From positions 1,290,001-1,322,000 of the forward strand of contig NZ_CP011034.1 of assembly GCF_001465295.1 (NCBI RefSeq): a stretch of DNA of 32,000 nucleotides, read 5' to 3'. This DNA comes from Pseudoalteromonas translucida KMM 520 (GTDB lineage Bacteria; Pseudomonadota; Gammaproteobacteria; Enterobacterales; Alteromonadaceae). A program made the position numbers and the translations under genes. This document shows, piece after piece, positions 6,092 to 32,000 of the stretch. The stretch's first letter is position 1. The number at the start of each line of letters is the position of its first letter. The notes under the pieces were generated by a model. The model made no database searches, was not told the origin of the DNA, and was given only the letters and a program-made list of their open reading frames with translations.

Positions 6092-6104
6092 GTTGGGAGT
6101 GGTT

Positions 6105-7953: not shown

Positions 7954-7964
7954 TTATTTATCTC

Positions 7965-8117: not shown

Positions 8118-8663
8118 ATGACTCAAGTAACACCTGCAATTATCAAAAACAGCATAACTACGATTGCTGATTACCCTAAAGCGGGCATTATGTTTCGCGA
8201 TGTAACGACACTAATGGCAAACCCAGATGCATTTAAAGCGACTATCGATGCTTTTATTACTGCATATAAAGATCAGGGTTTTACCAAAATTATTGGTACT
8301 GAATCACGAGGCTTTATTTTTGGTGCACCCTTGTCTTATGCTTTGGGTATTCCATTTATTCCAGTGCGTAAGCCTGGCAAACTGCCGCGTGAAGTTGTTC
8401 GTCAAGACTACCTACTAGAATATGGCGAAGACACGTTAGAACTGCATGTAGATGCTATCGTTCCAGGTGATAAAGTATTGCTTGTTGATGACTTACTAGC
8501 AACCGGTGGTACTATTGAAGCAACCATTAAATTAGTGCAAAAATTAGGTGGCGAAGCCACTGATGCAGCATTTGTTGTTTCATTACCAGAGCTTGGTGGT
8601 GAAAAGCGTATCGAAAAAATGGGTATTAAAATCCTAAAATTGGTTGAATTCGAAGGCGAGTAA
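8118..8663 (+). CDS. apt: Adenine phosphoribosyltransferase
   Basis: Full-length match to the Apt pattern: [15 protein letters not shown]...[12 protein letters not shown]...[13 protein letters not shown]. It sits upstream of dnaX, as in E. coli. Confidence 0.95.
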
Positions 8664-8666
8664 TCG

Positions 8667-11189: not shown

Positions 11190-11252
11190 TTTATTACAAC
11201 TGCCCTTATTTAGTAACCTAGTTAATGTATTAAAAAAGAAAGAGAGAAAGTT

Positions 11253-11579
11253 ATGTTTAAAGGTGGAATGGGTAACATGATGAAGCAGGCGCAGCAAATG
11301 CAAGATCGCATGCAAAAAGCCCAAGACGAAATTGCAACATTAGAAGTTGTAGGCGAAGCCGGTGCCGGTTTAGTTAAAGTAACTATGCTAGGTAACCACA
11401 ACGTTCGCCGCGTAGAGCTTGATGAGAGCTTAATGCAAGACGACAAAGACATGATTGAAGACTTACTTGCAGCAGCATGTAACGATGCTGTTCGCCGTGT
11501 AGCAGACGAAACACAAGAGCGTATGGGCAAAGTAACTGGCGGTATGCAATTACCACCAGGTATGAAAATGCCGTTTTAA
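11253..11579 (+). CDS. ybaB: YbaB/EbfC nucleoid-associated protein
   Basis: 108 aa, [17 protein letters not shown]...[10 protein letters not shown]......ELD, typical of YbaB. Conserved dnaX-ybaB-recR order. Confidence 0.9.
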
Positions 11580-11585
11580 GCCTAT

Positions 11586-12194
11586 ATGCAACTTTCAGCT
11601 AGTTTAACTCAGCTTATAGAGGCATTGCGTTGTCAGCCGGGCATTGGCCCTAAGTCAGCGCAACGTATTGCTTTTCACTTGCTAGAGCGCGACCGTAAAG
11701 GGGGCACTCAGCTTGGCAATGCACTGACAAAAGCTATGACGGCGGTTGGTCATTGTGAGTCATGTCGCACTTTTTGCGAGCAGTCGCAGTGCGACATTTG
11801 TTTAAGTACTAAACGCCAAGACAGCGGCATATTATGTGTTGTTGAATCGCCAAGCGACGTACTTGCTATAGAGCAAACAGGTCAATATTTAGGGTTGTAC
11901 TTTGTATTAATGGGGCATTTATCGCCTATTGATGGTATTGGCCCTAAAGAAATTGGCCTAGATGTTTTAGAGGCAAAGTTGGCACAAAGCGGTATAAACG
12001 AGGTGATTTTAGCAACCAACCCTACGGTTGAAGGCGAAACCACGGCACATTATATTGCTCAGCTTTGTCATAAATACAAAGTAGGTGCTTCGCGTATTGC
12101 TCATGGTATACCGGTAGGTGGTGAGCTTGACTTAGTCGACGGTACAACGTTAATGCATGCCTTTAGTGGCAGGCGAACGGTAACACAAGACTAA
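11586..12194 (+). CDS. recR: Recombination protein RecR
   Basis: HhH motif ([15 protein letters not shown]), a C4 zinc finger (CESC..C....CDIC) and Toprim ([12 protein letters not shown]...). Confidence 0.95.
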
Positions 12195-12223
12195 CTGATA
12201 ACTGCTGTTAGAAATTGTAAAAA

Positions 12224-12256
12224 AAGCCTGCATAATTAAGTTATGTGGGCTTTTTT
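12224..12256 (+). terminator. Probable intrinsic terminator after recR
   Basis: An imperfect stem, AGCCTGCATAA / TTATGTGGGCT, followed by TTTTTT. Confidence 0.5.
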
Positions 12257-12547
12257 GTTGTACGTAAGCCAACTAGATTAAAGACGTGCATTGCCAGTAT
12301 GATCATGTTTTTTTAATTGGATTGGTATAAATATTAAGCCTACTAATTCAGGCATAGTAAGTAACCTAAACTCCGGATAATAAACCTATCTCAAGCAGCT
12401 ATTGACGCGTAAATTCGCCTTGTTTTCACTGAAAACCTCAGGCTAGAGAAATTAATTTAAATATAATTATGATTCAATACGTTAGTAAATCTCTTAACCA
12501 GAGTTTAGGTTAAGCAGTATAACCAGTCCTAATTTTAAGGAATAATT

Positions 12548-13267
12548 ATGCCGACTCCTGACTCTGATACCATGATTATAGTTGATGATTTTGTAGCTCC
12601 ACAGTGCGATGGCTTGGTTGAAATCCTCTTTGCAGATGAAGACATTTTATTGATCAACAAACCCAGTGGTTTGTTGAGTTTGTCGGGGAAAAACCCGCTC
12701 AATTGGGATTCTGTGCATTATCGTTTAGTGAATGGGCAAGCAGGTATTACGGCTGCGTACCCCGAGGCTAAGTTACCGCACAGGTTAGACTTAGGTACAT
12801 CGGGCATTATGGTTGTGGGATTAAACGCAGCGGCTGCTAAGCATCTAAATAAACAGTTTCAGGCGCGTACAATTAAAAAGCGCTATGTAGCCATATTACA
12901 CGGGTGGTTAATTGACGACGAAGGGCAAATTAGTGCGTCGATAGCAAAAGATAAACTGCTTTTTCCGCGGGTTAAAATCTGCGAAGCCACAGGCAAAACT
13001 GCCGTAAGTGAATATAAAGTGCTGCAACGCCTAACGCAACCACAGCGAACCTTAGTGCAATTTACACCCATTACAGGGCGTACGCACCAATTGCGTATTC
13101 ACAGCCAGTTTATAGGGCACCCTATTTTAGGGTGCGATTTATATAACAATGCACAAAGCGAGCATATGGCAGCGCGCTTACAGCTTCATGCAAGTGATTT
13201 GTATTTTCAGCACCCGGTAAGCAATGAGCAAATTCATATGCAATGCGCTAGTACGTTTTATTTTTAA
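12548..13267 (+). CDS. RluA-family pseudouridine synthase
   Basis: Catalytic motif HRLDLGTSGIMVV, plus KRYVAI, GRTHQLRIH and LHA..L motifs of the RluA family. The AAGGA SD is correctly spaced. Confidence 0.85.
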   Translation: MPTPDSDTMIIVDDFVAPQCDGLVEILFADEDILLINKPSGLLSLSGKNPLNWDSVHYRLVNGQAGITAAYPEAKLPHRLDLGTSGIMVVGLNAAAAKHLNKQFQARTIKKRYVAILHGWLIDDEGQISASIAKDKLLFPRVKICEATGKTAVSEYKVLQRLTQPQRTLVQFTPITGRTHQLRIHSQFIGHPILGCDLYNNAQSEHMAARLQLHASDLYFQHPVSNEQIHMQCASTFYF

Positions 13268-13301
13268 GACAATATTGGTTGGGACTTTTTTTATTTTTTC
13301 C

Positions 13302-13328
13302 CTTGAAGTTCTAGCAGCTCCCCCATAT
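13302..13328 (+). promoter_or_regulatory. sigma32 (heat-shock) promoter of htpG
   Basis: CCTTGAA (CTTGAA at 13302-13307), a 13-nt spacer, then CCCCATAT (13321-13328). This fits the CTTGAA-N13-17-CCCCATNT consensus and lies 43 nt upstream of the htpG ATG. Confidence 0.65.
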
Positions 13329-13370
13329 TAAGTGCATAACGCAGACACTTTGCAAATTGGAGATATATTA

Positions 13371-13451
13371 ATGACTGCAGCACAAAAAGAAACATTAGGC
13401 TTTCAAACAGAAGTAAAACAACTATTAAACCTGATGATCCATTGTATTTAA
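13371..13451 (+). pseudogene. htpG: 5' fragment of htpG (Hsp90), truncated by prophage insertion
   Basis: The fragment translates as MTAAQKETLGFQTEVKQLLNLMIH-CI-stop. E. coli HtpG begins ...[22 protein letters not shown]. Identity stops after His24 (about nt 13442), and an integrase gene follows. Confidence 0.8.
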
Positions 13452-13570
13452 ACATTCCACGCTATTTATTTTTATCTCCCTTTTAGTCCTGTTATCCACG
13501 TAAAAACAACAACTTAAACCACCACTAACCACTCCTATCTACTACTAACTATCTTTATATATCGCTGTTA

Positions 13571-13641
13571 TTGGTGACAATTGTGTACCAAGGTGTGTAC
13601 CATTTTATTATTGGCCTCAAATTTGGTCACATTTGGTACAC
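13571..13641. repeat. Short repeats next to attL (candidate integrase arm-type / Xis sites)
   Basis: GTGTACCA at 13583-13590 and 13595-13602 (direct), and TGGTACAC at 13634-13641 (inverted). TTGGTGACA (13571) and TTGGTCACA (13623) are also present. Confidence 0.4.
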
Positions 13642-13656
13642 AGAGTCGGAGCATCA

Positions 13657-14856
13657 ATGAACATAACAGCAGCTAAGCTAAAGAGTTTGAACGGTAAAGA
13701 GTATGCCGGCAAACCTGAGCTAACGGATGGCGATAGCTTATCCATAAGGATCTCCCCAAAGGGAAAGATCACCTTTCAAATACGCTATAGAATAGATGGT
13801 AAGCAGGCACGATATAAAATTGGCACTTACCCTACAATGACGCTTGCACAGGCTAGGGAAAATTGTGCGGAGCAAATGAAGTTTGTTGCGAAGGGTTTAG
13901 ATCCTCGGAAAATGGAAGCTGTAAAATCTGTTTTAGTTGATCATATAGATAACCCAACTATTAATGACTGCATTGAATACTGGTTTAAAAATTACTGTTT
14001 GCCCAGACGAGATAAGCCGGCTGAAATTAAATTGCGTATTACTTCATGCTTAAGAACCCTATGGGCAAAGCAATACGTGTCAATCATGGATAAGACGCAC
14101 TTTGCAGCAATGTTTAAAGCGATGAATGATAAGTCAATTGAAAAGGGGCGGGGTAAGGGGTTTTCGTTTAACGCGATAATTGAGATCAGATCTGCGCTTA
14201 GGTTTTGCGTTCGCCAGGGGTTTATTGATAACACCCAATTTGAAGCTTTGCGCCCTGGTGATTTTGCGAGTGACTATGACGTTCGTGAGCATTATTTATC
14301 AATACAAGAGTGCCAGTTAATTTGGGCCCATGTTGATGAGTTGAATATAACCGATAGAAATAAGGTTATTCTGCGTTGCGCTATGGTCTTTGGCTGTCGC
14401 ATAAGCGAGCTGTGCAGTGCGAAAAAAACAGACTTTGATTTAAAGGCAATGCTATTCACTACGCAAAGAGAAAATACAAAAGGTGCTTTGCATTCTATTG
14501 TTAGGCCTATACCACCTGATTTAATTGCTGATCTGCAGCATATGAAAGAGCAATCGCCTTCATTTAAGCACATGTTTCCTAATCGTGATGGCGATTACCC
14601 AGCTAACAGCTCAAGTGTTAGCCAAATATCTAAAGCATGCCATCAAGAAATAGAGGGTGTTGCGCCGTTTAGAATGCATGATTTAAGACGGACAATATCA
14701 ACACATTTAACTGATGCGGGATGCCCTTTGCAATTTACTGAAAAATTACTAGGGCATAAAATGAAAGGCGTGTTGGCGATATATAATAAATCGCCAATGC
14801 TCGATGGTTTAACCGAATGGGTTAACCGGTGGGTGATCATGCTGAAAGGCGAATAG
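13657..14856 (+). CDS. int: Tyrosine integrase (P4/DUF4102-arm type)
   Basis: The N-terminal arm-binding pattern (L.D.....L.IRISPKGKITFQIRYR..GK..R..IG.YP.M.LAQAR) and the C-terminal catalytic region (RISEL....HDLRRT......LLGH) are present. ATG 13657 has a GGAG SD. The track's TTG 13633 is less likely. Confidence 0.9.
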   Translation: MNITAAKLKSLNGKEYAGKPELTDGDSLSIRISPKGKITFQIRYRIDGKQARYKIGTYPTMTLAQARENCAEQMKFVAKGLDPRKMEAVKSVLVDHIDNPTINDCIEYWFKNYCLPRRDKPAEIKLRITSCLRTLWAKQYVSIMDKTHFAAMFKAMNDKSIEKGRGKGFSFNAIIEIRSALRFCVRQGFIDNTQFEALRPGDFASDYDVREHYLSIQECQLIWAHVDELNITDRNKVILRCAMVFGCRISELCSAKKTDFDLKAMLFTTQRENTKGALHSIVRPIPPDLIADLQHMKEQSPSFKHMFPNRDGDYPANSSSVSQISKACHQEIEGVAPFRMHDLRRTISTHLTDAGCPLQFTEKLLGHKMKGVLAIYNKSPMLDGLTEWVNRWVIMLKGE

Positions 14857-16407: not shown

Positions 16408-16607
16408 TAGGCTGCTAACTCTGCATCAGGTTCTTGCTTGTAGTTACTGCAAACCTCAACCGCGTACACACCTTTATTTAATTTTGAACAGCTACCGTAT
16501 TTAGCTTTCTTGCTATCACTGTTGATAGCAAAGCCTTTACAGGTGAAGTTCTGGCAGCTAATGCACGCTTTAGGCATACCTACTTTTGAAATTTCCATTT
16601 TATGCAC
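16407..16607 (-). CDS. Hypothetical small Cys-rich phage protein
   Basis: 66 aa with CISCQNFTC...C...C. It overlaps the upstream ORF by 8 nt. An alternative ATG lies at 16598. Confidence 0.5.
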   Translation of the reverse strand: MHKMEISKVGMPKACISCQNFTCKGFAINSDSKKAKYGSCSKLNKGVYAVEVCSNYKQEPDAELAA

Positions 16608-17046
16608 TCGCTTTAAATTGGTTGGCTGTTAGCCGATCGTATTTTTTCTGCGTTATGCCATGGGCTTTAATTGCTTCACTCGAATTTATACCGCTATCTA
16701 TTTTCTCTTTAATAGCGATAAGCAATAAATGCTGGTTATTGCGCTGTATATTGCGAATGTCAGGCTTCTTTATATTTTGCTTTTCTAGCTGGTAGTAAAT
16801 TGCGCCAACTGATACGCCTATTTCTTTGGCTATAACTGTCACGGTTTTAGTCTTTAGCTGCTCTGGGACGTTAGCTTTTTTTATTTTTAGTGCTGGAACG
16901 TAACCCTTAAAAGCAACTTTATTTTTTTCCATGTGGTAACGGATTGTTTCAGGGTAAACCTCGAATTTGTCGGCCACTTCTTTTAGAGGTAATGTTTCAA
17001 CAAGCTCTAAAATTAGGCTTACATCTTGTTCGCTTAATTTGCTCAT
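16600..17046 (-). CDS. Phage protein with repeated helix-turn-helix-like segments
   Basis: I chose the start at MSKLSEQD (ATG 17046), which forms an ATGA overlap with the methylase stop. Segments LKEVADKFEVYPETIRYHM and VIAKEIGVSVGAIYYQL look like HTH motifs. Confidence 0.55.
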   Translation of the reverse strand: MSKLSEQDVSLILELVETLPLKEVADKFEVYPETIRYHMEKNKVAFKGYVPALKIKKANVPEQLKTKTVTVIAKEIGVSVGAIYYQLEKQNIKKPDIRNIQRNNQHLLLIAIKEKIDSGINSSEAIKAHGITQKKYDRLTANQFKASA

Positions 17047-17861
17047 GCTGCTTTCCTTGCCTTTCTCAGCTTTGCAGCATGGCGGCCTTTGCATGACTTG
17101 CTAAAGTAAATACCCCAGCCTCTTGCAAGGTCCGCTTTGCGTACTACTTTTTTATTTCCGCAACCACAAGCGCAAAGTATTTCTTTTTGATGCGGCTTTA
17201 GCTTTGGTCTTTCTGATTTAGATCCCGCTAAATTAAAGGGGGGTGGGTTATTCAGCTTTCCAACTTCATCACCCCAAACAGACCAACCCTTTACACGCTT
17301 GCGAGAGAAAAGCTCGATGCGAGGAACGTCACCGGCTAGCTCAACGCATGCTTGCCTAAACTCGTCTGGCTTTTCGCTGTGCTGGCGTACTGGCAATGCA
17401 CCGGCGTACACGCCAAGGCCCAGCACTTCATCAAGGCTTTTTGAGTCATAGTTACCAACGGCGCGTACTGAGCGGTCTGAAACTTTTGGCTTGCCTTTAA
17501 CAGCTATAATTGCTGACTCGCTGCCTGCGCGGGTCCAAAAGCCCATGCCAAAAACAGGGTTGTTGTGAACGGTTAATTTATTCCAATTAAAGCCATTCAT
17601 ATTTTTAAGCGTAAAGCCCCATGCTTTAACAACGTCCAGGGCTTCTTGTGGCATAGCGCCCACGTACCACATAACCAAAATACAATCGTCCGCGGCTATA
17701 TCATCAATAGGCATAGCTTTTAGCTCGTCTACGCTCATTGTTGATTTGTATTGATGTGCCGCACCGCTTGTCATGCTTCCGCCTGTTTTTTTATTGCCAA
17801 ACTGCCAAGCAGGGTCGCAGTAAATAAGGTTAAATTTTTGGCCTTTAAATTGTTCAAACAT
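17043..17861 (-). CDS. MT-A70-family DNA N6-adenine methyltransferase with C-terminal Cys-rich extension
   Basis: Motif LIYCDPAWQF (a DPPW variant), then Y.STMSVDELKAMPI...ILVMWY....EALDVVKAWGF......W.K...GMGFWTR..SE..I.AVKG. An extra tail CACGCGNKK...SKSCKGRH follows. Confidence 0.8.
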   Translation of the reverse strand: MFEQFKGQKFNLIYCDPAWQFGNKKTGGSMTSGAAHQYKSTMSVDELKAMPIDDIAADDCILVMWYVGAMPQEALDVVKAWGFTLKNMNGFNWNKLTVHNNPVFGMGFWTRAGSESAIIAVKGKPKVSDRSVRAVGNYDSKSLDEVLGLGVYAGALPVRQHSEKPDEFRQACVELAGDVPRIELFSRKRVKGWSVWGDEVGKLNNPPPFNLAGSKSERPKLKPHQKEILCACGCGNKKVVRKADLARGWGIYFSKSCKGRHAAKLRKARKAA

Positions 17862-17871
17862 GGGGCGCTCC

Positions 17872-18555
17872 TTAGATGCACATTAGTAAAGCGGGGTATT
17901 GCAGACCAATTGGCGCGAACGGGATTTCATCGTCGTAAAAGTCATTGCCTGGACCCATTGGGTTACCTGAGCCACCTTGTTGCTGCCCGCCATTCATGTA
18001 CTGGCTATTAGAAACGCCGCCTTGTTGCTGGTTGTTTTGCTTAGGTGCAAAGTTGCCTTGCTGCTGACCTTGATTACCTTGGCGTTGCGCCTGGCTGTTG
18101 CCTTGGTAATTATTATTACTATTGCTGTAAGAATTATTACCCTGTGCTTTATTGCCTTGATGTTGGCCGCCTTGCGGTCCCTGAGCTTGATTACCTTGCC
18201 CTTGCTGTCTTTGACCCAGCATTTGCATTTGCCCGGTAAAGCCATCAACTACAACCTCAGTTGTGTACTTTTCTTGGCCTTGTTGATCGGTCCATTTACG
18301 CGTTTGTAATTTACCTTCAACGTAAATTTGTGAGCCTTTGCGCACATATTCGCCTACGATTTCAGCTAACTTGCCAAAAAATGAAATGCGATGCCATTCG
18401 GTTTTTTCTACCATTTGGCCGGTAGCTTTATCTTTGTAGTTATCGCTTGTCGCAAGCGTTACGCTAGCTACTGCGTTACCGCTGGGCATGTAACGCACTT
18501 CTGGATCTTGCCCGCAATTACCTACTAAAATTACCTTATTCACACCTTTAGCCAT
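17872..18555 (-). CDS. ssb: Single-stranded DNA-binding protein
   Basis: The OB-fold is near-identical in pattern to E. coli SSB ([29 protein letters not shown]...DKATG...E.TEWHR...FGKLAE). A Q/G/N-rich linker and the DDEIPF motif follow, plus 14 further residues. Confidence 0.9.
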
Positions 18556-18565
18556 TACTTACTCC

Positions 18566-18709
18566 TTACTTAGTTGTTAAAAAAATAATGGTGGCTAGCA
18601 CTAAAACGCGCACTGTGTTTACTGCTACCATTTTTAAAAAGTCTCTGCGCTTTTGCTTATCAATAGCGCTTGAGCTATTGCCTTTAATTGCCATGTAGTC
18701 GTGCATCAT
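18566..18709 (-). CDS. Possible 47-aa membrane micro-protein
   Basis: Found by manual translation: MMHDYMAIKGNSSSAIDKQKRRDFLKMVAVNTVRVLVLATIIFLTTK. Its ATG overlaps the upstream stop (TAATG), and its stop abuts the ssb SD. It is below the ORF-track cutoff. Confidence 0.35.
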   Translation of the reverse strand: MMHDYMAIKGNSSSAIDKQKRRDFLKMVAVNTVRVLVLATIIFLTTK

Positions 18710-18945
18710 TAGGCTGCTCGCTTCACTTTCATTGCTGGACTAATACCGCCAAGCTCTAAAATAATGTTGTTCATTTTTGCGCAAACGTTGAATGCAAGAG
18801 AGCGCCTTGTTGTAAACTTGCAGCCAGGTAGTGCCCAGCCGGCTTCGCCATTAACTTTGCATGCGATAATAGTTGCTTGGCCTACGCGAATATCTTTAAA
18901 ATCTTCTCTTGCGGCTATTAGTCGTGGAACGCGTAATACTTTCAT
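18709..18945 (-). CDS. Hypothetical phage protein
   Basis: 78-aa ORF in the operon. No recognisable motif. Confidence 0.5.
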   Translation of the reverse strand: MKVLRVPRLIAAREDFKDIRVGQATIIACKVNGEAGWALPGCKFTTRRSLAFNVCAKMNNIILELGGISPAMKVKRAA

Positions 18946-19001
18946 GTGAACCTCGGTTAAAAGAGCTGCGCCCGAAGGCGCTGGCTCGGTCGGAGTTAAA
19001 A

Positions 19002-20231
19002 TTAAGCGGCTAATGCTTTATTTAAGCGTTGCTCTAGCAGTTCGATATAGCTTTCAGCGTGCATTAGCTGGTTGCATATGCGGTCTAGCTCGTCGTTATC
19101 TGCGCGGTCACGGTCGCTAGGCCATAAATCAAGTGGGTCGTAACCTAGCTTTTCGCCACTTTCAAAAACAGGCGATTTAAAGTTATTGCCTAAAAGCGGT
19201 TCGTTTTGGCCCAGCATGCGATTAACGTCGGTTAGCGCTTCGTGCTGCTCAACTGGCGCTTGCTCGGCTTCAATTGCTTGGTGCTCTGCATTGCGCTGCT
19301 CGTTTAGCTGGGTCTGCGCTGCTTGCTGCTGCGCTTCAACTTGGCTAGCTGCTTGATTAGCTACTTGTTGCGCTTGCTCTACTTGCAACTGCTGCGTGTG
19401 CATCATGGTTAATTGCTGAATAACTTGCGCTAGCACTTGGTTTACTTCGCTTGTGCGGTTGCCAAACTTATCTTCGCTTGGTGTAAAGCTTTCTAGCTGC
19501 TGAATGCGAGCCATAACTTCATTACTTTGCTTGCCGAAGTAATTCATTGGGTCGTTGCGCAGGTTGCTTATACGGACCTCGATTTCTTGAGCTTGTTTTT
19601 GCAGGCGTTCTTGCTGTGCCACTGCCTCTTGCTGAATGCGCAATTTCTCACGCTCTAACGCTACTGCCTCTGCTGCTTTGGCCGCTTGGTACATGTTGTT
19701 GAGCGTTTCAAGGACTTCTTTTTTAGTGTTGATTGCTTCGTGAATAAGCTCTTTGTCGAAAATATCGGTTTCAATCAAATCAACTGACTCAATGGTGTCG
19801 GCTATAAACTTGGCTGACTGGCCTTTGCATTGCTCGACAAAATAGTTAATGTCGGCTATTTCTTGGCGCTGCTTGTTTAAAAACGCTTCGCGCTCTGCGG
19901 CCTTGCGCGCCGCTTCTTCTTTGCGAAAAGTATCTTCATCTTCAAACGCAACAACAATAGGTTTAAAAATGCCGTTAACTTTTTCACTTAGATCATCTGC
20001 GTAAGTTTTAACTTCTGCAGTAAAGTCCAGGCGGCGACGCTTAATTGACTCAACAAGCTTGTTGCGCTCAGTGCGTATTTTGCGACCTTCTTTAAAGTCG
20101 TCGTCGTCTTTCATATCGAGCGTTAGCTTTTTAGGGTATTTTTTACGTAAATCAGCAAGACCTTGCTTTGTTAGATCTTCTTGAAAAACGATTTCAACTA
20201 AATTAGTTGCAGTGGTTGATTGGTTGCTCAT
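19002..20231 (-). CDS. Coiled-coil, Q/A/E-rich phage protein next to the annealase (recombination accessory?)
   Basis: 409-aa ORF with a long heptad-like Q/E/A-rich centre. Its stop lies 4 nt downstream of the Rad52-like gene (intergenic 20232-20235). The function is not recognisable. Confidence 0.6.
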   Translation of the reverse strand: MSNQSTTATNLVEIVFQEDLTKQGLADLRKKYPKKLTLDMKDDDDFKEGRKIRTERNKLVESIKRRRLDFTAEVKTYADDLSEKVNGIFKPIVVAFEDEDTFRKEEAARKAAEREAFLNKQRQEIADINYFVEQCKGQSAKFIADTIESVDLIETDIFDKELIHEAINTKKEVLETLNNMYQAAKAAEAVALEREKLRIQQEAVAQQERLQKQAQEIEVRISNLRNDPMNYFGKQSNEVMARIQQLESFTPSEDKFGNRTSEVNQVLAQVIQQLTMMHTQQLQVEQAQQVANQAASQVEAQQQAAQTQLNEQRNAEHQAIEAEQAPVEQHEALTDVNRMLGQNEPLLGNNFKSPVFESGEKLGYDPLDLWPSDRDRADNDELDRICNQLMHAESYIELLEQRLNKALAA

Positions 20232-20235
20232 GGCT

Positions 20236-21174
20236 CTATACTCCGTGGTTTAGTTTATTTAGCGCGTCTGTATGCGCTTGGTTAACGCGAGCAACATAAT
20301 CGCTGCTATCTACGTTGGCTGATTTACAGTGACCTTTAAGCTCTTGCAGTAAGTGCTTATGGTTCAGGGTTAATACTGATTCGTTTTCCGCTGTGGCTAT
20401 GCGGTCAAAAATAGATGTGTTAAGCCAGGTGATGAACTTTTTGTTAGCCGCTAGGCTGTTCTCTTGCGCCTTTGCTTCAAGCTCAGCTTTTTTGCGGTCT
20501 TTTATTTCAACGGCCTTGTTGCGTATATCAATACGATTAAGTGCCGCAGCAAATTTATAAGCCTGGTTGTAATGCTCGCGCATTGTTTCCATGCTTGTAG
20601 CTTGCTCGATAGCATCAAGGTACTTATCAAATTTGGCCGATGGCATTGCCCAATCGGGTAGGGCAGGTGGAAACCACTCTGCATCCATTCTAGGGCCGCC
20701 CTTATTACCTTTATTTAGCGGTATGCGGATATACTCGCCATTACATTCAAAGCGATTTTGAACCGGTGCGCATGTTGCAAACTCGGTATCAAGCGAGTAA
20801 AGGTAGCGGCCAATGCCGAACTGAACTGCGCAGCGTTTCATAGCGCCAGACAAAGCACCCTTTAGCGCTTCAATTGGCGTGTACTCTGAGCCATCCCATT
20901 TAGTAATCCAGTTATCACCAAAGCGAACTTTTAAGCCGCACAAGTAACCTTTGCCGGCTGCCGCCTCCTGGTAAATATTTTCCCAGGCGTCAATACCTAC
21001 AACATCGTCAAGGCGCTGTTGAATAGCGCGGTTGGTGATGTAAGGAATAACCATTACCCAAGGCTTTTGCTTTGCAGTTACGCCGCTTTGCTGAACGCGC
21101 CATTCAATATCGTGTTCCTCGAAGGGATCAGCTAATAAGCGCTGTATTTCTGCTGGTGTTTTATTGTTGCTCAT
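20236..21174 (-). CDS. Rad52/Rad22-family single-strand annealing protein
   Basis: The N-terminal half shows the family pattern: DIEWRVQQSG...PYITNRAIQQRLDDVVG...W....GSEYT.IEALKGALSGAMKRCAVQFGIGRYLY. Confidence 0.7.
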   Translation of the reverse strand: MSNNKTPAEIQRLLADPFEEHDIEWRVQQSGVTAKQKPWVMVIPYITNRAIQQRLDDVVGIDAWENIYQEAAAGKGYLCGLKVRFGDNWITKWDGSEYTPIEALKGALSGAMKRCAVQFGIGRYLYSLDTEFATCAPVQNRFECNGEYIRIPLNKGNKGGPRMDAEWFPPALPDWAMPSAKFDKYLDAIEQATSMETMREHYNQAYKFAAALNRIDIRNKAVEIKDRKKAELEAKAQENSLAANKKFITWLNTSIFDRIATAENESVLTLNHKHLLQELKGHCKSANVDSSDYVARVNQAHTDALNKLNHGV

Positions 21175-22167: not shown

Positions 22168-22812
22168 TTAAAAATCCTGAATAACCTGTTTTACCACGCC
22201 AATGATAGTGCAGTTTCCATTAATTGGCATGGTTGGGTAGCTGTTATTAAAGGGCTTTAAATATTTGGCCCCGCCATCTATCACTAACTGCTTTAGAGTG
22301 GCTTCTTCACTATCGTTTAACATCGCTACTACAACTTTACCATGCTCAGCACCAATGCAAGGATCCACGATAATTACCGAGCCTTCGGGAATTGATTTGC
22401 CGCCGGTAAAGCTGGTCATGCTATCCCCCTTAACGCGCAGAGCAAATGCTTCGTCACTTACGTTGGCGGTGTGCTGATAAAAAATAGTATCACTAGTTTG
22501 TTGCAGCACTTCCATGTCGATCTCTTTCCATTTACCTGCTTGCACCCATGATATTAAAGGTGCTTTGCCCCTTAAGTCTGGCCCAAGCTCTAATTCCACA
22601 TTGCCTTCCGGCACTCCTGAGCCTGACGCTAACCACCTGGCATTGCATCTTAGTGCTTTAGATAGCTTTAATAAATTTTCACTTGATGGGATTACTTGGC
22701 CTGTCCGCCAGTGACTAACAGAAGCTCGACCAGTCCCTAGCTGTCTAGCAAGCTCACTACCTTTTATTCCAAGTTGGTTCATTCGTGAAATCAAGCGTTC
22801 TGAAAAGCTCAT
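22168..22812 (-). CDS. cI: CI-type prophage repressor (XRE HTH + S24 LexA-like peptidase domain)
   Basis: N-terminal HTH (LGIKGSELARQLGTGRASVSHW) and a C-terminal S24 domain with the catalytic Ser motif VKGDSM and a downstream Lys. It is divergent from a cro-like gene. Confidence 0.9.
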   Translation of the reverse strand: MSFSERLISRMNQLGIKGSELARQLGTGRASVSHWRTGQVIPSSENLLKLSKALRCNARWLASGSGVPEGNVELELGPDLRGKAPLISWVQAGKWKEIDMEVLQQTSDTIFYQHTANVSDEAFALRVKGDSMTSFTGGKSIPEGSVIIVDPCIGAEHGKVVVAMLNDSEEATLKQLVIDGGAKYLKPFNNSYPTMPINGNCTIIGVVKQVIQDF

Positions 22813-25866: not shown

Positions 25867-26190
25867 ATGACGACAATTAAAAAAAGCACGTTCACTCAGT
25901 TATCAGCAGCCGGCGAGATTTTTTGCGATGGTTTTATCACAAACGCAAAGGATCAGGCTGCAAAAGCAATTCAAGGTGGCGCACAGGTAAACCATGATGC
26001 AGCGTTTGGCAATCTAACCAAGGCGGTTGCAGTGCTAGCAGATAAAAACCAGCTAGATAGACAGATGCGCGATGTACTTCTAACTATTGGCGCACACATT
26101 TTAGTGCAGGCACAAAAAGAAGCAGTGGCGGCGCAAGAAGGCGAAGCTAAGACGGGGCCAGGTAAAAAACAAGGTAAGGCCGCGCAATGA
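25867..26190 (+). CDS. Hypothetical phage protein
   Basis: 107-aa ORF with a GGAG SD and a 4-nt overlap with ninB. Confidence 0.5.
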   Translation: MTTIKKSTFTQLSAAGEIFCDGFITNAKDQAAKAIQGGAQVNHDAAFGNLTKAVAVLADKNQLDRQMRDVLLTIGAHILVQAQKEAVAAQEGEAKTGPGKKQGKAAQ

Positions 26191-26639
26191 GCAAAAAAGT
26201 TTTAACTGTTACAAATGTCCAATACTTAATGCCGCAAGTAGGCAAGGCCATACGGGATATTTTAAAGCAAGGCAAAAACGTTGTTGTTGAGTTTAAAGAG
26301 CACAAAGCAAAACGCTCTTTAGCTCAAAACAGATTGTTGTGGGTATGGAACCAGGAGATAGCTAATCACTTTCGTGAACACTTTGGGCAAGAAAATAGCT
26401 CTGAGGACGTGCACGAAGTATTTGTGCGTAAAAAGTTTGGCGTAAAGGTTATTCAGGCCGGTAACGAGGAGCCCATTATTGTTCGCAAGCGCACGCGCAA
26501 GTTAAACACCAAAGAATTTTGCGAATACCTGAATTGGATGGAGCAGTATTGCGCTGAATATTTAGAGTTAATGCTACCGCAACCCGATGACTTATATCAC
26601 TTGGCTATGTATGGGGAGGCAAACAATGTCGCTCATTAG
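26187..26639 (+). CDS. ninB: NinB/Orf-family recombination mediator
   Basis: RSLAQNRLLWVWNQEIANHF... and its position in the nin region upstream of rusA. Confidence 0.75.
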   Translation: MSKKVLTVTNVQYLMPQVGKAIRDILKQGKNVVVEFKEHKAKRSLAQNRLLWVWNQEIANHFREHFGQENSSEDVHEVFVRKKFGVKVIQAGNEEPIIVRKRTRKLNTKEFCEYLNWMEQYCAEYLELMLPQPDDLYHLAMYGEANNVAH

Positions 26640-26928
26640 TAAAAAAATACGCAATAGCGCACGCGGCCAAGAATGCCAGGTGCGTATACCTAGCGTATGC
26701 AATCGCAATAATGAAACCGTAATACTTGCTCATGTTGGCAAGGGTTCAGGCATGGGGCAGAAGTGCGACGATATACACGCTACTTACGCATGCTCAGCTT
26801 GCCATGATGTTATTGACAGAAGAGTACGCCAAGACAATGCAAGCGAAGTACAGGTTTACGCATATGAGGGCATGGTTAGAACGCAAAAGCTTTTACTAGA
26901 GCAAGAATTAATACGGGTGGCTAAATGA
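26626..26928 (+). CDS. YbcO/DUF1364-like putative nuclease
   Basis: MSLISKKIRNSARGQECQVRIPSVCN...ETVILAHV......ACSACHDVIDRR parallels E. coli DLP12 YbcO. ATG 26626 has a GGGGAGG SD. Confidence 0.7.
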   Translation: MSLISKKIRNSARGQECQVRIPSVCNRNNETVILAHVGKGSGMGQKCDDIHATYACSACHDVIDRRVRQDNASEVQVYAYEGMVRTQKLLLEQELIRVAK

Positions 26929-27299
26929 TTAACTTAACTCTGCCGTACCCGCCAACAGTTAACCATTACTGGAAATCAACAGTAAAGCGCGTTGCAGGCA
27001 ATAAAGGTCGGGTGATAACGCGCGTAAGCGATGAAGGCAAGGCATTTGCTGAACAAGTGTTTTGGTTAGTGCGCGAGCAAAAAGCCCATAAAAAGCTTAA
27101 AGCAGATTTAAAGCTAGTTATACACATTTATGTGCCGGATAGACGTAGGCGTGACATTGATAACTTAAGCAAGTCTTTATTTGATGCAATGCAAAAAGCT
27201 GGTGTCTATGAAGATGATACGCAGATAAAAGACTATCGCATGATCCACAGTGGAATAGTCAAAGGCGGAAAAGTTACACTGAGCATTGAGGAAATATAA
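26925..27299 (+). CDS. rusA: RusA Holliday-junction resolvase
   Basis: LTLPYPPTVNHYW ... RRRDIDNL.K.LFDA...GVYEDD.QI are classical RusA motifs. Confidence 0.85.
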   Translation: MINLTLPYPPTVNHYWKSTVKRVAGNKGRVITRVSDEGKAFAEQVFWLVREQKAHKKLKADLKLVIHIYVPDRRRRDIDNLSKSLFDAMQKAGVYEDDTQIKDYRMIHSGIVKGGKVTLSIEEI

Positions 27300-27300
27300 C

Positions 27301-27861
27301 ATGCAGCCAATTAAGCTACTGTCTAAGTTAACAACGAAAACACTAAACCTTACCGGCACTTTTGGCGGTAGTGGGCAAGACGTTATAGATTGGCGAACAG
27401 CAGCACATGCTTTAGCCGGCTTGCCATCTTGCCAAACAAATTGGGCTTACTTTCGTTATGTAGGGGAAGAAACAAGGCTTAATCGTGTTATACGCTCACT
27501 TACAATGCACATAACGCTATTTATCAAGATAAAACGCTATAAGGTTAAGCCTGAAACGTTAAACGGCATAGTAATGTCAGCGGTTTATGAATTTGTACAG
27601 CCTGTATGTGGTGAATGTGACGGTAGTGGATTAGCTCCAGGGCAAGTAGCAACGAACCTAGATGCTCAGATTTGCATTAAGTGCCATGGGCGAGGACGAA
27701 AGCCAGTATCAACACGCAGTAGATGCAAGATTATAGGCATCGGACATAAAAGCTATACTGACAGCCATGATGACATTACGAAAGAGCTACTGCGCTTAAT
27801 AGCCGGCTGGGAAAGCGATATATTTAAAAATATACGGGTAAAAATGGGGGAGGTTGCTTAA
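27301..27861 (+). CDS. Lambda-Q-family late antiterminator
   Basis: The double CxxCxGxG zinc motif (CGECDGSGL ... CIKCHGRGRKP) and overall layout parallel lambda Q (CRDCHGTGR ... CGRCKGVGY). ATG 27301 has a GAGGA SD. It is the last gene of the nin region. Confidence 0.65.
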   Translation: MQPIKLLSKLTTKTLNLTGTFGGSGQDVIDWRTAAHALAGLPSCQTNWAYFRYVGEETRLNRVIRSLTMHITLFIKIKRYKVKPETLNGIVMSAVYEFVQPVCGECDGSGLAPGQVATNLDAQICIKCHGRGRKPVSTRSRCKIIGIGHKSYTDSHDDITKELLRLIAGWESDIFKNIRVKMGEVA

Positions 27862-27919
27862 TTAAAAGTTAAAAGTGGTTGTTAAATTTTATTATAAAGA
27901 AAGCATAATATAAATATAT

Positions 27920-27947
27920 TTGATAATGTTAATGTGTCTATTACGAT
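27920..27947 (+). promoter_or_regulatory. Candidate sigma70 promoter in front of the cargo pair
   Basis: TTGATA (27920-27925), a 16-nt spacer, TACGAT (27942-27947), 33 nt upstream of the DprA-like ATG. It could alternatively be part of the pR'/qut region. Confidence 0.3.
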
Positions 27948-27980
27948 GGACCAGCAATTTATATTTTTGGAGAGTAAATT

Positions 27981-28973
27981 ATGGATAAGAACGAATACTG
28001 GAAATTGGAAATAGTTGCGTTCTACGCACTACAGTCCATCCATGGTATTGGTTTTAGAACTCTATATAAAATTGCTGCTAAAAAGATCAGTTTTCGAGAT
28101 TTAATTAAAACAGATGACTACTTATATTTTGAGAAAACCTTAAGGCTAAAGTTAGAAGATTCGGCTATTGAGTCGGAAGAGAGTTGGGAGCAATATAAGA
28201 AAGATTTGTGGGTCAGAGGTGTTGAACTTGCGCGAAAATGTCAACGTGAAAATATCCGAGTCATTTTTTATGATCAAGAGATATTCCCAAAACAATTAAG
28301 ATCTATCCCAGAGCCACCAATGTGGCTTTTTATTCAGGGTAATTTAGCTAATTTACATAATAGATCTGTTGCCATTGTAGGCAGTAGGAAAGCGACTGAA
28401 GAAGGGTTATGGCTAACTACATTAGTAGTTGCGGCTATGGCTAAGGGAGGATTAGTATCAGTGAGTGGCCTTGCTGAGGGGATTGACCAAAAGGCTCACA
28501 TAGATTCATTGCGGTTCAAAATCCCGACAATAGCGGTCCTTGGTACCGGTATAGATAGCAATTACCCTAAAGGCTCTGAAGTTATAAGAGCAGAAATATT
28601 GGCTAATGAAGGAACCATAGTTTCAGAATATCTAATAGGTCAAAGCTATAGCGCTCAAAACTTTGTTCGCCGAAATCGAATTCAAGCTGGATTAGCTGAG
28701 ACAATTATACCAGTAGAGTGGAAGGTTAAAAGTGGTACTGCGCACACAGTTAATTTTACCAAAGAATATAATCGCTTTCTTGTTATGCCTCATTTGCCGA
28801 ACACGGTTGATAATGATGAGCTACAGTTAGTTCGTTCTTACCCTTTAGGGTTAACATTTTGCGTCCCTGAGCATTCAGGAGCGCTTATTGACTTCATATT
28901 TCACCCCTATGACAAGTTAACTCATGTTGTTGAATCAGGTGAAGGTAATAATCAAATTCAAATGGATATATAG
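27981..28973 (+). CDS. DprA/Smf-like (SLOG-fold) protein, ShosA-like
   Basis: An HhH-like N-terminus (LQSIHGIGFRTLYKI) and DprA Rossmann motifs: VAIVGSRKATEEG, SGLAEGIDQKAH, IAVLGTGIDSNYP, FVRRNRIQAGLA and KSGTAHTV. GGAGAG SD. Confidence 0.8.
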   Translation: MDKNEYWKLEIVAFYALQSIHGIGFRTLYKIAAKKISFRDLIKTDDYLYFEKTLRLKLEDSAIESEESWEQYKKDLWVRGVELARKCQRENIRVIFYDQEIFPKQLRSIPEPPMWLFIQGNLANLHNRSVAIVGSRKATEEGLWLTTLVVAAMAKGGLVSVSGLAEGIDQKAHIDSLRFKIPTIAVLGTGIDSNYPKGSEVIRAEILANEGTIVSEYLIGQSYSAQNFVRRNRIQAGLAETIIPVEWKVKSGTAHTVNFTKEYNRFLVMPHLPNTVDNDELQLVRSYPLGLTFCVPEHSGALIDFIFHPYDKLTHVVESGEGNNQIQMDI

Positions 28974-28981
28974 GAAGTAGC

Positions 28982-30223
28982 ATGGCAGCAAAAAAACTTA
29001 AAGGTGTAATACTAAGTGTAGAGAATACAATCTTAAATGTTGGAAATATAGATAATGATGTATTCACTGAAGTAAGAAAGCTTATGAATTACTTCAAAAC
29101 CCGTGGAATAACACCTGTACTTTTGGCAAATAGAAGAAGAACTGTTACGTATCGTGGAGTTCCAAGGGATTTGTACGAATACCTAGAAGAAATATTCGAT
29201 GAGCTTGTTGTATTTACAAGGTTACGCAATCCCGAGGTGCCACCAAAGCCACAAGCTGCAGCAACTAAGTATGTCTTAGATAAAATGGGATGGGAATCAA
29301 ACGAAGTTATCTATATAGGAAGTAGTGATGATGACATGCGGACAGCATTAAATGGAGATATATTATTTTTACGTGGAACCTGGTATGCAAATAATACAGA
29401 TTATGGCTTTGAGTTTAACGAGGTAAAAGAAATTGCCAGGTTCATAGATACATTGTGTCTACGTGAGCATTTTTGGAGCCATGAAATAAAAGATGGTGAT
29501 TTAGAGTATTACGCGTTAGCACCTTTTAGCACTTATAAAGAAGCTTTTAGGAAGTACTCAGAAAATGCGCGCGCTGCAGCTAAGTTTTTGGGGAGAGGTG
29601 ATGTTGATTTTTGGCTTGGTGCACTAGTCACGAGTATGTACTTTACTGGGATTCATAAACGAATTGACTTTGTTGCAGCTTATCCTGGGCATAGAGCCAG
29701 TGTAGGCAATGACAAAATGAATGATGAGCTTATGACATTTGCTAAATGCTTTAGAAAAGGTTACTTACATAATGTCATAGAGCGCCACACAACCGCTTTG
29801 AAATCTCAGACTGCTAGAAATCAACGTGTTCATTTAGATCATCATAATCAACTTAATACAATCAAGCTTAATAAGTTCCCAACAAAAAACTTTACAACAG
29901 TCTATAAGAAATCCCCTTTAGCTAATGGAAAAACGCTTTTGTTGGTCGATGACATATGCACAAAAGGTTATTCGCTCGAAGCTGCAAGAAAGTATGTTGA
30001 GAGAACTCGAGCTAAGACAATACTGGTTACGTGGTTAAAAACTATTAACACGGATTATTTTACTATTGGCGACCCTGGTACATTTAACCCATATCAAGCT
30101 AATACGTTTCAAAACGTGCCTGTTGGACAGCAGTATAATTACCACGTCTACCATGTTGATGGTGCCGCATCTGAAGAGTTAGCAGACCAATTAGAACAGT
30201 ACATTAATTGGGATTGGCCATAA
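28982..30223 (+). CDS. Two-domain protein: degenerate HAD-like N-terminus + type-I phosphoribosyltransferase C-terminus (ShosT-like)
   Basis: PRPP-binding loop KTLLLVDDICTKGYSLEAA near the C-terminus. The N-terminus has VILSVENTIL where HAD enzymes have DxDxT, and IYIGSSDDDMRTA resembles HAD motif IV. It starts 8 nt after the DprA-like stop. Confidence 0.75.
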   Translation: MAAKKLKGVILSVENTILNVGNIDNDVFTEVRKLMNYFKTRGITPVLLANRRRTVTYRGVPRDLYEYLEEIFDELVVFTRLRNPEVPPKPQAAATKYVLDKMGWESNEVIYIGSSDDDMRTALNGDILFLRGTWYANNTDYGFEFNEVKEIARFIDTLCLREHFWSHEIKDGDLEYYALAPFSTYKEAFRKYSENARAAAKFLGRGDVDFWLGALVTSMYFTGIHKRIDFVAAYPGHRASVGNDKMNDELMTFAKCFRKGYLHNVIERHTTALKSQTARNQRVHLDHHNQLNTIKLNKFPTKNFTTVYKKSPLANGKTLLLVDDICTKGYSLEAARKYVERTRAKTILVTWLKTINTDYFTIGDPGTFNPYQANTFQNVPVGQQYNYHVYHVDGAASEELADQLEQYINWDWP

Positions 30224-30310
30224 GCTAGATAGTGTTTTCAGATACAGATTCAATAATTAGCAGTAAAGGTAGCTTCGTGTTTGATTAACATTTAACGAGT
30301 GCATTACACC

Positions 30311-30453
30311 AGATTGCAAAGATTGCAGGTATAGCGATAACTGCGCACTATAAAAACAAATAACTCATTGAAAATATTTAAAAATAACCACTGCGCACAT
30401 ATAAGTTGCGCAATTACTGCGACATAATGCGCATGAGTGCACCTGCTGCGCAC
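30311..30453. promoter_or_regulatory. Cluster of CTGCGCAC / TGCGCA-palindrome motifs (candidate operator array)
   Basis: Exact CTGCGCAC at 30341, 30391 and 30446. TTGCGCAA at 30406, ATGCGCAT at 30428, ACTGCGAC at 30417. AGATTGCA occurs twice at 30311-30328. All lie upstream of the 30546 ORF. Confidence 0.45.
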
Positions 30454-30545
30454 TAAAGCATGAAGTGAAAATGACGCTAAGGCAGCGTGTGTTACCCATA
30501 AATTAACAGCTATGGACGAAACTGCTAAAAAGGAGAAGGCGAATA

Positions 30546-31277
30546 ATGGAGAAATTTGGAAGGTGCTTTAAATGGATAACTTTCACTTACGTGATATTAG
30601 TTCTGGTCATAATTTTTGCTTACGGTTTTTTTGTTAAAGGAGGTAGCTGGGGCAGTTTAAGTGATGTTGTTATTGCTGTATTTACAGTACTCATTGCTTA
30701 TACAACAAACATGCTATTAATTGCTGCTTGGCTTACTAGTAGCTCTTGGTTAGACCAGAGCAAACATAGCTCAGCTCAAGAGCTTCTTTTGTCACTTTCT
30801 GAATACTACTTTACTATTCATGAAATTAAGACGATGTATATTGAGAAGAGATTTCTTGAAAGCTTTACCAAAATAACTCCGAATAATTATCATAAGCTCT
30901 CCAGCCAAGCGTTAAAGTATTTCGAAGGGACACCTAAAAACGCCACACCAGCTCAACTTGCGCCTTTTTTGGATTTCATATTGCCCACATTTAAAGAGGA
31001 AGCTGAAAAACTAAAGCCTCAAATTTACGCAATTAAGGAAAAATTAAATCAGCTCAAATTTGAAGTTATGACAAAGGCAAGCCCATTCGCAATAGAGATC
31101 GAGCATTTAGATTTTGATTTAATAACAGAGATTAATTTCATGCTAACGATAGATGAAAACATGCACAAAAACGCCAGCCAATTATTTGATAAACTTAGTG
31201 CCGCCACTGGTTATGATGGCTTTAAGTTAATGTATATCGCAGACCCAGTAAAAGACGGGCTATTCAAGGATGCTTGA
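30546..31277 (+). CDS. Membrane protein of unknown function (two N-terminal TM helices + helical soluble domain)
   Basis: Excellent SD (AGGAGAAGG). TM segments ITFTYVILVLVIIFAYGFFV and VVIAVFTVLIAYTTNMLLIAAWL. No recognisable domain. Confidence 0.6.
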   Translation: MEKFGRCFKWITFTYVILVLVIIFAYGFFVKGGSWGSLSDVVIAVFTVLIAYTTNMLLIAAWLTSSSWLDQSKHSSAQELLLSLSEYYFTIHEIKTMYIEKRFLESFTKITPNNYHKLSSQALKYFEGTPKNATPAQLAPFLDFILPTFKEEAEKLKPQIYAIKEKLNQLKFEVMTKASPFAIEIEHLDFDLITEINFMLTIDENMHKNASQLFDKLSAATGYDGFKLMYIADPVKDGLFKDA

Positions 31278-31644
31278 TAGTAATTTTAACAAAGCTGATT
31301 TATATCTTGATTTACCTCATGGCGTATCAGGCTTAATTGAGAAAAACAAAAACGCCACTTTCTACGGCATCGCCAGTGGTCGCTCAATGGAAGGTGTTGG
31401 CATATTCGATGGTGATTTACTTATGATTGATAGAAGCTTAAGTGTAGAGCCTGGTGATGTGATCGTTGCTGTACTTAACGGCCAGTATGTTTGCAAAATA
31501 GCAGACCTTAAAAATAACCTGCTTTTATCTGCAAGTGATGAGTACGGCCCTTATAAACTCAAGGAGGGTGACGAGTTTACATTAGAGGGTGTAGTTAGCA
31601 GCTCAGTTCGCATGCATCGTGGAAATATAAAGGATACTATTTAG
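31270..31644 (+). CDS. UmuD'-like S24 peptidase lacking the cleavable N-terminal arm (HumD-like)
   Basis: ATFYGIASGRSMEG.GIFDGDLLMIDRS....GDVIVAVLNGQYVCK aligns with UmuD [28 protein letters not shown]...GDIVIAAVDGEFTVKK. Only about 30 residues precede the Ser motif. The ORF overlaps the upstream ORF by 8 nt. Confidence 0.8.
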   Translation: MLDSNFNKADLYLDLPHGVSGLIEKNKNATFYGIASGRSMEGVGIFDGDLLMIDRSLSVEPGDVIVAVLNGQYVCKIADLKNNLLLSASDEYGPYKLKEGDEFTLEGVVSSSVRMHRGNIKDTI

Positions 31645-31645
31645 C

Positions 31646-32000
31646 ATGTGTAATACAGAAAAAAAACCAAAGCACAAGCAAGTTTTTGCTATTGATGAGA
31701 GTGAAGGATTGCACAAGAACTATTCTTTTAGGCTGGCTATATTTCTACCTATTGTGTTTTCGGCCGCAATAATTATTATATTCTCTTTACAGCTATGGAG
31801 CGATGGCGGATTTAGATTGGGATTTTCACAATCAGAAGTGTCAGCATTTATTAAATATTTTTCATTTCCAATATCTTTATTGCCACTTAGCATTGTTTTT
31901 GGCGTTATGGTTGCGAGGTTCCATTCGTCAAAGCAAAAGGCAAAAAGCAACTTGATTACTGAGGTTAACAATTCAGTAAATTTTTTTTACAAAACACATG
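31646..32000 (+). CDS. Partial ORF (open to window end): membrane protein of unknown function
   Basis: Found by manual translation: MCNTEKKPKHKQVFAIDESEGLHKNYSFRLAIFLPIVFSAAIIIIFSLQLW...FSFPISLLPLSIVFGVMVARF... The ATG lies 1 nt after the S24 stop. There is no stop before 32000, so it is absent from the ORF track. Confidence 0.5.
   Translation, partial: MCNTEKKPKHKQVFAIDESEGLHKNYSFRLAIFLPIVFSAAIIIIFSLQLWSDGGFRLGFSQSEVSAFIKYFSFPISLLPLSIVFGVMVARFHSSKQKAKSNLITEVNNSVNFFYKTH

Follow-up and report, generated by a model that had tools for sequence, protein, structure and literature searches.

ShosTA is a toxin–antitoxin system best described in E. coli (APEC O1 and KTE181; Kimelman 2012, Millman 2022, Rousset 2022, Pu 2025, Yang 2026), with several structures now available (PDB 8ZVA–8ZVD, 9W2P, 9W2Q and 9VZO). 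The toxin ShosT has been described as a hydrolase domain of pyrophosphatase fold (residues 1–164) followed by a phosphoribosyltransferase (PRTase) domain, which spans residues 165–424, and its toxicity in E. coli is neutralised by ShosA without binding between the two proteins (PMC11961720, PMC12961424). Protection of E. coli against T7, lambda and other phages has been reported in three independent studies. The pair found in the P2 hotspot was validated against T7 and lambda by Rousset et al. 2022, with DprA suggested as a sensor of phage DNA. PsyrTA and ShosTA are placed together in the discovery paper, as pairs of a DprA-like antitoxin and a PRTase-containing toxin. We have analysed a stretch of 32,000 nucleotides (nt) from Pseudoalteromonas translucida KMM 520 (contig NZ_CP011034.1, positions 1,290,001 to 1,322,000), referred to below as the window, in which two adjacent genes have E. 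coli ShosTA as their closest known system. They very probably form an intact, canonical ShosTA cassette of the type IV toxin–antitoxin, abortive-infection kind, carried by a prophage as accessory cargo after its antiterminator gene Q.

Identity of the two genes and comparison with known systems

Direct reading of the window gives two co-oriented open reading frames (ORFs) on the plus strand, ORF1 at 27981–28973 (330 amino acids, aa) and ORF2 at 28982–30223 (413 aa), separated by a spacer of 8 nt (28974–28981, plus strand; GAAGTAGC). Each gene has its own Shine–Dalgarno sequence: GGAGAG (27969–27974) is found 7 nt ahead of the first ATG, and AGGAAG, ahead of the second gene, overlaps the stop codon of the first. 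The ORF1 translation holds the motifs GSRKATEEG, GLAEGIDQKAH, AVLGTGIDSNYP and RRNRIQAGLA, and that of ORF2 holds SVENT and LLLVDDICTKG. An initial annotation, made from the sequence alone, had quoted these ORFs, the gap, the signals and the motifs, all of which are indeed present. It had also proposed that the pair is a ShosTA-like toxin–antitoxin and anti-phage module, and this assignment is borne out by the best PADLOC matches of the two proteins (E = 2.7e-86 and 9.5e-93) and by full-length matches to structures in the PDB.

ORF1, named shosA hereafter, encodes a DprA-like antitoxin, as indicated by PADLOC, Pfam and PDB matches. It is recognised by the PADLOC ShosA profiles PDLC03961 (E = 2.7e-86) and PDLC02997 (E = 1.3e-73) and by the Pfam family DNA_processg_A (E = 1e-57), and its residues 6–284 align with the solved E. 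coli ShosA (PDB 8zva / 9vzo; E ~5e-68, ~38% identity). The layout is that of the E. coli protein: a SAM-like domain at the N-terminus comes before the DprA Rossmann domain, and the C-terminal tail that follows is not conserved. Likeness to the DprA/Smf and ComF proteins of transformation lies in the DprA Rossmann fold, the arginines binding single-stranded DNA (ssDNA), the interaction with RecA and the ComF PRTase-like domain. A transformation DprA orthologue was considered for ORF1 and rejected, since its scores fall below the NCBIfam dprA equivalog cut-offs (169 bits against 191.15 for TIGR00732, and 135 against 495 for NF008007); the protein is thus DprA-like and not a DprA orthologue. Unlike the DprA/Smf and ComF genes, moreover, the pair forms a mobile prophage cassette with no competence gene context, and the ComF match of its PRTase domain is insignificant (E = 0.014). 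PsyrTA / RqlHI also has a DprA-like antitoxin, and the PADLOC PsyrA model matches ShosA with E = 4.3e-25; the ShosA models are, however, far better, and the product of ORF2 matches no PsyrT model.

ORF2, or shosT, matches the PADLOC ShosT profile PDLC03012 (E = 9.5e-93) from residue 4 to 413, on positions 4–426 of 427, as well as PDLC03962 (E = 1.8e-54). Its residues 7–413 align continuously with the solved E. coli ShosT (PDB 9w2p / 8zvb; E ~2e-85, ~38% identity). Weak HAD matches are observed in the first 130 residues, with PF13419 (HAD_2) just reaching its cut-off (23.9 bits against 23.8; E ~5e-5) and PF00702 (Hydrolase) staying below its own (E ~5e-5). Among the profile searches suggested initially, DNA_processg_A and the PADLOC ShosTA models gave clear matches, whereas that of Pribosyltran, around the VDD loop, is sub-threshold (E = 1.2e-4). 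On sequence grounds, ShosT is predicted to consist of an N-terminal HAD-type hydrolase domain of pyrophosphatase fold (approximately residues 1–161; 28982–29464, plus strand), which aligns with residues 1–164 of E. coli ShosT, and of a C-terminal PRTase domain carrying the toxin function (approximately residues 162–413; 29465–30223 with the stop codon, plus strand), indicated by PADLOC and PDB matches, in which LLLVDDICTKG is the PRPP (phosphoribosyl pyrophosphate) loop. An identical protein is recorded as PTRA_a1445 of P. translucida KMM 520. Relatives at 70–76% identity are found in Vibrio, Photobacterium, Aliivibrio, Morganella, Proteus, Enterobacter and Klebsiella, and others at ~55% identity in E. 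coli, Salmonella, Yersinia and Pseudomonas.

Two traits of the pair had initially been taken as departures from ShosTA, the first being the upstream position of the DprA-like gene. The loci of ShosT relatives were compared for this purpose (35 genomic and 18 viral, 52 of them with upstream sequence), and in 52/52 the gene directly upstream of shosT, on its strand, encodes a ShosA homolog. The order is also that of the crystallised E. coli type, whose sequence is encoded by locus L045 (numbering from MYLKAV reproduces N53, K54 and R56), and of the P2-like phage 10W. Spacers between the two genes are mostly from -8 to about +15 nt; shosA of L045 overlaps shosT by 8 nt, where the window has an 8-nt spacer. 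The fusion of a HAD-type domain to the PRTase, likewise thought to be unusual, is the published ShosT architecture (PMC11961720, PMC12961424). The S12-V-E-N-T motif of the window copy does depart from the canonical HAD motif I, DxDxT with its nucleophilic Asp, and such a loss is shared by the whole family: Ser occupies the nucleophile position in 46/46 aligned ShosT homologs, crystallised E. coli ShosT reading SIADV. That the domain is catalytically dead, as had been supposed, is not established either, since the E. coli domain with the same Ser has a Mg-independent pyrophosphatase activity, measured by Pu et al., and since the R56A mutation changes E. coli ShosT toxicity only marginally in the same work. 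As to DNA sensing, likewise envisaged initially, Rousset et al. 2022 and Yang et al. 2026 had already put this idea forward. The cassette is a new phage and host context for known ShosTA, with no architectural novelty left after testing.

In the alignments, every mutationally validated residue of ShosT and ShosA is retained in the window copy. In ShosT, the PRPP-binding and toxicity residues of E. coli (H240, K280, R285, D331 and D332) have their equivalents in H237, K274, R279, D323 and D324 of the window copy, positions that vary little or not at all in 48 sequences; in the hydrolase domain, N50 is invariant, while R53 and K89 are the equivalents of E. coli R56 and K92. In ShosA, each of the ssDNA-binding residues R136 and R231 (E. 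coli R139 and R234) is found in 46/46 homologs. At the RecA contacts, position K197 (E. coli K200) is K or R in 43/46 and R203 (E. coli R206) is kept in 42/46. Beyond these residues, the window pair and E. coli ShosTA have in common shosA upstream of shosT, tight spacing, the Ser-bearing HAD-type domain, the non-canonical PRTase and their occurrence as prophage cargo. They differ by host, here a marine Pseudoalteromonas, and by location, here a lambdoid slot after Q and not the P2 hotspot by cos and gpA; both window proteins are ~38% identical to their E. coli counterparts.

Location and mobility of the cassette

The prophage is a lambdoid, P22-portal-type prophage of P. translucida. Rightward of cI, it carries Cro, O, P, NinB, YbcO and RusA genes, and then a Q-type gene (27301–27861, plus strand), which forms the left flank of the cargo slot. 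The ORF list starts this gene at TTG 27286, and the gene callers of its homologs at ATG 27301 (186 aa). Its sequence match is weak (phrog_127 'Q-like', E ~1e-3), and no match to the Pfam Q family was obtained. The predicted structure (predicted local distance difference test, pLDDT, of 77) is more telling: in a fold search against the PDB, lambda Q ranks 1–5 and AlpA 6th (template-modelling score 0.51–0.60, E only 5.5e-3, probability up to 1.00). The protein also has a CxxC-x18-CxxC zinc motif. The best fold match, the zinc motif and the position next to RusA all fit the initial statement that the pair comes right after Q, and the upstream gene is a putative Q-type antiterminator with moderate confidence.

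The same statement placed the pair before the late genes. This is seen in L055, a second, related prophage from an independent sample, whereas the window ends before any late gene. L055 is 99.2% identical to the window over 26000–31636 and encodes an identical ShosT. It continues with orf243, S24 peptidase, membrane protein and DUF5675 genes, and then, ~2.5–6 kb downstream, with holin, probable terminase and P22-type portal genes.

Sixteen viral contigs share Q (83–97% identical), NinB, YbcO, RusA and terminase with the window prophage, and ShosTA is present in 0/16. The space between Q and the first shared gene of the lysis cluster or packaging is filled there by 1.6–4.8 kb of other, mostly unannotated genes, and the similarity of these relatives to the window halts at the Q stop codon to resume only at an S24 peptidase gene. 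Conversely, DNA similarity among the ShosTA loci is confined to 27968/27981–30223, between unrelated flanks. A reading of the pair as core phage genes was ruled out by the lack of synteny of Q, RusA or other backbone genes around the other ShosTA loci. The GC content of the cassette (0.38) also departs from that of the adjoining phage genes (0.42–0.46). The initial annotation had itself envisaged a conserved core gene set in all relatives of the phage as an alternative to cargo; the absence of ShosTA from all 16 relatives sharing the backbone, the unrelated flanks and the GC contrast rule this out and support accessory cargo after Q. The slot is hypervariable and begins at the Q stop codon. 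Repeats or attachment-like sites at the cassette edges, sought by DNA similarity, were not identified, because this similarity ends at the coding sequences.

A non-coding block just upstream of the lysis cluster is conserved in five relatives, L055 (13663–13790), L057, L065, L070 and L072. It holds TTGCAA and an extended -10 element (TGaTATAGT), as well as a pair of strong hairpins that bear T-tracts (-37.3 kcal/mol, z = -6.4), the sequence of the second stem varying between phages with its pairing kept. It looks like a Q-dependent late promoter with terminators, and the cargo slot, ShosTA included, probably lies between Q and this candidate promoter. Since the candidate promoter–terminator unit is downstream of the slot, ShosTA is probably outside the Q-dependent transcript. 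In Stx phages, stx is downstream of the late promoter PR' and Q-dependent. The stx-type moron cargo thus resembles the present slot in being made of accessory genes downstream of Q that vary between related phages, and differs from it by the side on which the promoter lies.

Upstream of shosA, a non-coding, AT-rich leader of 119 nt (27862–27980, plus strand, from direct reading) has a GC content of 25%, against 42% in its flanks, and no terminator was called between Q and shosA. It is not homologous to the corresponding DNA of the relatives. A private promoter, TTGATA-16-TACGAT, had been proposed there. The quoted site does exist (27920–27947, 9/12 consensus matches), but promoter-like sites in the AT-rich region are at chance level (21, against 17.1 +/- 4.2 in shuffles), so that it provides no evidence by itself. 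A long non-coding leader precedes most shosA genes (47 loci; median 286 nt), and no conserved promoter was alignable across the ShosTA leaders, as there is no homology between their flanks. In gammaproteobacterial loci the non-coding leader measures 100–600 nt; in the high-GC alphaproteobacterial loci L017, L018, L021 and L024–L026, the shosA start is instead preceded, within ~3 nt, by the end of an ORF of 80 aa or more, which may be a third gene of the operon or a chance ORF in GC-rich DNA.

Proposed mechanism and alternative explanations

The mechanistic steps have been shown for E. coli homologs only and are transferred here by homology. The PRTase domain of ShosT would bind PRPP and pass the phosphoribosyl group to an acceptor, and the fused HAD-type domain could hydrolyse the pyrophosphate released. 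As a result, purine metabolism would be disturbed, DNA would be damaged or duplicated, and the cells would form filaments and die. The ShosA dimer, leaving ShosT unbound, would bind ssDNA and RecA and promote a recombinational repair that offsets the damage. Upon infection, shut-off of host transcription by the phage might let an unstable ShosA decay; instead or besides, ssDNA intermediates of phage replication might titrate ShosA away from RecA. The toxicity of ShosT would then prevail, and the infected lysogen would die or stall before the invader finishes its cycle. In the lysogen, expression could come from a promoter within the AT-rich leader, and read-through from the early-right operon may add to it during lytic growth, the cassette being probably upstream of the Q-dependent late promoter.

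Several points weigh against an intact canonical ShosTA that works in this way. The ShosTA systems tested so far are all from the E. coli clade, ~38% identical to the window copy. The two published models of the trigger differ. Two positions deviate in the window proteins: at N15 of ShosT, 37/46 homologs have Asp instead, and N258 of ShosA is the counterpart of E. coli R261, at which the R261E substitution is tolerated in E. coli ShosA (Yang et al. 2026). The leader promoter is a candidate whose matches are at chance level, and the candidate late promoter unit was found in L055 and relatives, outside the window.

A first alternative is that the pair is an addiction module stabilising the prophage, which would penalise prophage loss through post-segregational killing and exclude phages little or not at all. 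The location on a mobile element, an antitoxin that is unstable in E. coli next to a stable toxin, and the first description of ShosTA as a toxin–antitoxin pair in Kimelman 2012 all speak for it. Set against this are the protection conferred by homologs in three independent studies and the fact that a prophage integrated in the chromosome is seldom lost by segregation. We regard this explanation taken alone as improbable, the roles in addiction and in defence being not mutually exclusive.

A distinct, ssDNA-sensing variant, with a dead HAD domain and an inverted gene order, has also been considered, in relation to the cooperation of DprA and ComF in transformation. In its favour it could be put forward that the PRTase domain weakly matches ComF (E = 0.014), that N15 replaces the usual Asp and that identity to tested systems is only ~38%. 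The characterised systems have, however, the same gene order and the same HAD fusion, the Ser at the nucleophile position is universal, the validated residues are all conserved, and the published model already includes the sensing of ssDNA by ShosA, all of which makes such a variant very improbable.

Still less probable is a role of the DprA-like protein and the PRTase as core genes serving the recombination, replication or nucleotide supply of the prophage itself. The prophage has further recombination genes (a Rad52-type recombinase, SSB, NinB and RusA), and ShosA promotes recombination in E. coli. Neither the 16 close relatives nor phage vB_Pun_Y3 has the pair, however, and the settings in which it is found are unrelated to one another, with P2-like phages, integrase–cI gaps and chromosomal islands among them; ShosT is, besides, toxic in E. 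coli. Finally, the chances of an inactive, decaying remnant are very slim: the promoter that is only a candidate and the N15 and N258 substitutions would fit one, but both ORFs are full length relative to their homologs, the key residues are all intact, an identical ShosT is borne by the independently sampled L055, and a toxin gene would not persist without a working antitoxin.

An intact ShosTA cassette at this locus widens the range of phage-borne ShosTA from the P2-like phages of E. coli to a marine lambdoid prophage. The clade to which it belongs is widespread, in Vibrio, Photobacterium, Pseudoalteromonas, Morganella and Klebsiella, and was not found among the systems tested in the ShosTA literature examined. 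The mechanistic weight of the finding is small, as standard defence-finder profiles recognise the pair and as structures and mechanistic studies of homologs exist. Such novelty as there may be would concern the slot after Q with its unannotated occupants, and not ShosTA itself.

Other occupants of the slot and further prophage genes

On the right edge of the cassette lies a non-coding gap of 322 nt (30224–30545) with five TGCGCA palindromes by direct count. These are 5 of the 19 such sites of the window, packed into 111 bp (30342–30452) around an AT-rich core. No Rfam match was obtained for this gap, and its RNA fold is no better than that of shuffled sequences (z = 0.66). The same cluster is found in L055 at 11363–11473, and in L057, where Q is 97% identical, six copies stand at 7973–8104, right after a different two-gene cassette; clusters of this kind were absent from fourteen more distant relatives. 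Roles as an operator, as an element bound by Q or as a module-boundary sequence are conceivable for the array, which might in the last case mark the boundary where cassettes swap.

The two-gene cassette of L057 encodes proteins of 250 aa (6726–7478) and 133 aa (7495–7896), in the exact position of ShosTA, from the Q stop codon to the TGCGCA array. The 133-aa protein has a marginal match to PADLOC HEPN_IX (E = 0.0027), and the pair is a candidate alternative toxin–antitoxin or defence cassette. In L058, the first gene after Q (1472–2389) encodes a 305-aa DUF6236 protein (Pfam E = 7e-24); orf243-like and S24 peptidase genes come next.

The window has its own copies of these last two genes beyond the gap. 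The product of the first, orf243 (30546–31277), is 243 aa long, is predicted to have membrane helices and matches nothing in Pfam, PHROG or PADLOC; orf243 overlaps by 8 nt the gene of an S24 peptidase (31270–31644), a UmuD-like protein of 124 aa that has no DNA-binding domain and is followed by no UmuC gene. The S24 gene is conserved at 75–79% in 7/16 relatives, and its 243-aa partner at only 30–44%, in 4 relatives; the two may constitute another accessory module. Just past the S24 peptidase gene, the window and L055 diverge abruptly (31636–32000 against L055 12655–13654). The window continues there with a membrane-protein ORF, which starts at 31646 and runs off the end, and L055 with an unrelated membrane protein of 329 aa. 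This divergence is a second swap point within the cargo slot.

Profile searches recognise little among these neighbours. PADLOC, run on orf243, the S24 peptidase, Q and 10 slot proteins of relatives, returned the marginal HEPN match (E = 0.0027) and no other, and Pfam, run on the same 10 slot proteins, returned DUF6236 as its one match. It is conceivable, if rather doubtful at this stage, that the interval from the Q stop codon to the candidate late promoter–terminator unit is a dedicated hotspot of anti-phage cargo in Pseudoalteromonas lambdoid phages. ShosTA would then be its sole recognisable occupant, and the unannotated families of genes in the slots of the 16 relatives, some two dozen in number, would include new defence systems, with the L057 pair and the orf243/S24 pair of the window as examples of candidates. 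The slot after Q of these phages is in this respect a place to seek uncharacterised defence genes.

As regards the rest of the window, positions 1–13267 are occupied by host genes, among them dnaX, recR and a pseudouridine synthase gene (12548–13267). The left prophage end lies at 13268–13632, between this last gene and the integrase gene (13633–14856). No tRNA gene was found across the whole window, which excludes a tRNA as the attachment site, and no known RNA family of Rfam was detected over the same length. The cI gene is on the minus strand (22168–22812). A leftward early operon, also on the minus strand (16600–21174), encodes a Rad52-type recombinase (20236–21174), an unannotated 409-aa protein (19002–20231), SSB (17872–18555), an MT-A70 methyltransferase (17043–17861; PADLOC MTase_II, E = 1e-51) and a helix-turn-helix protein with a weak match to PADLOC mad1 (16600–17094). 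Variants of phage SSB are a published route of escape from ShosTA.

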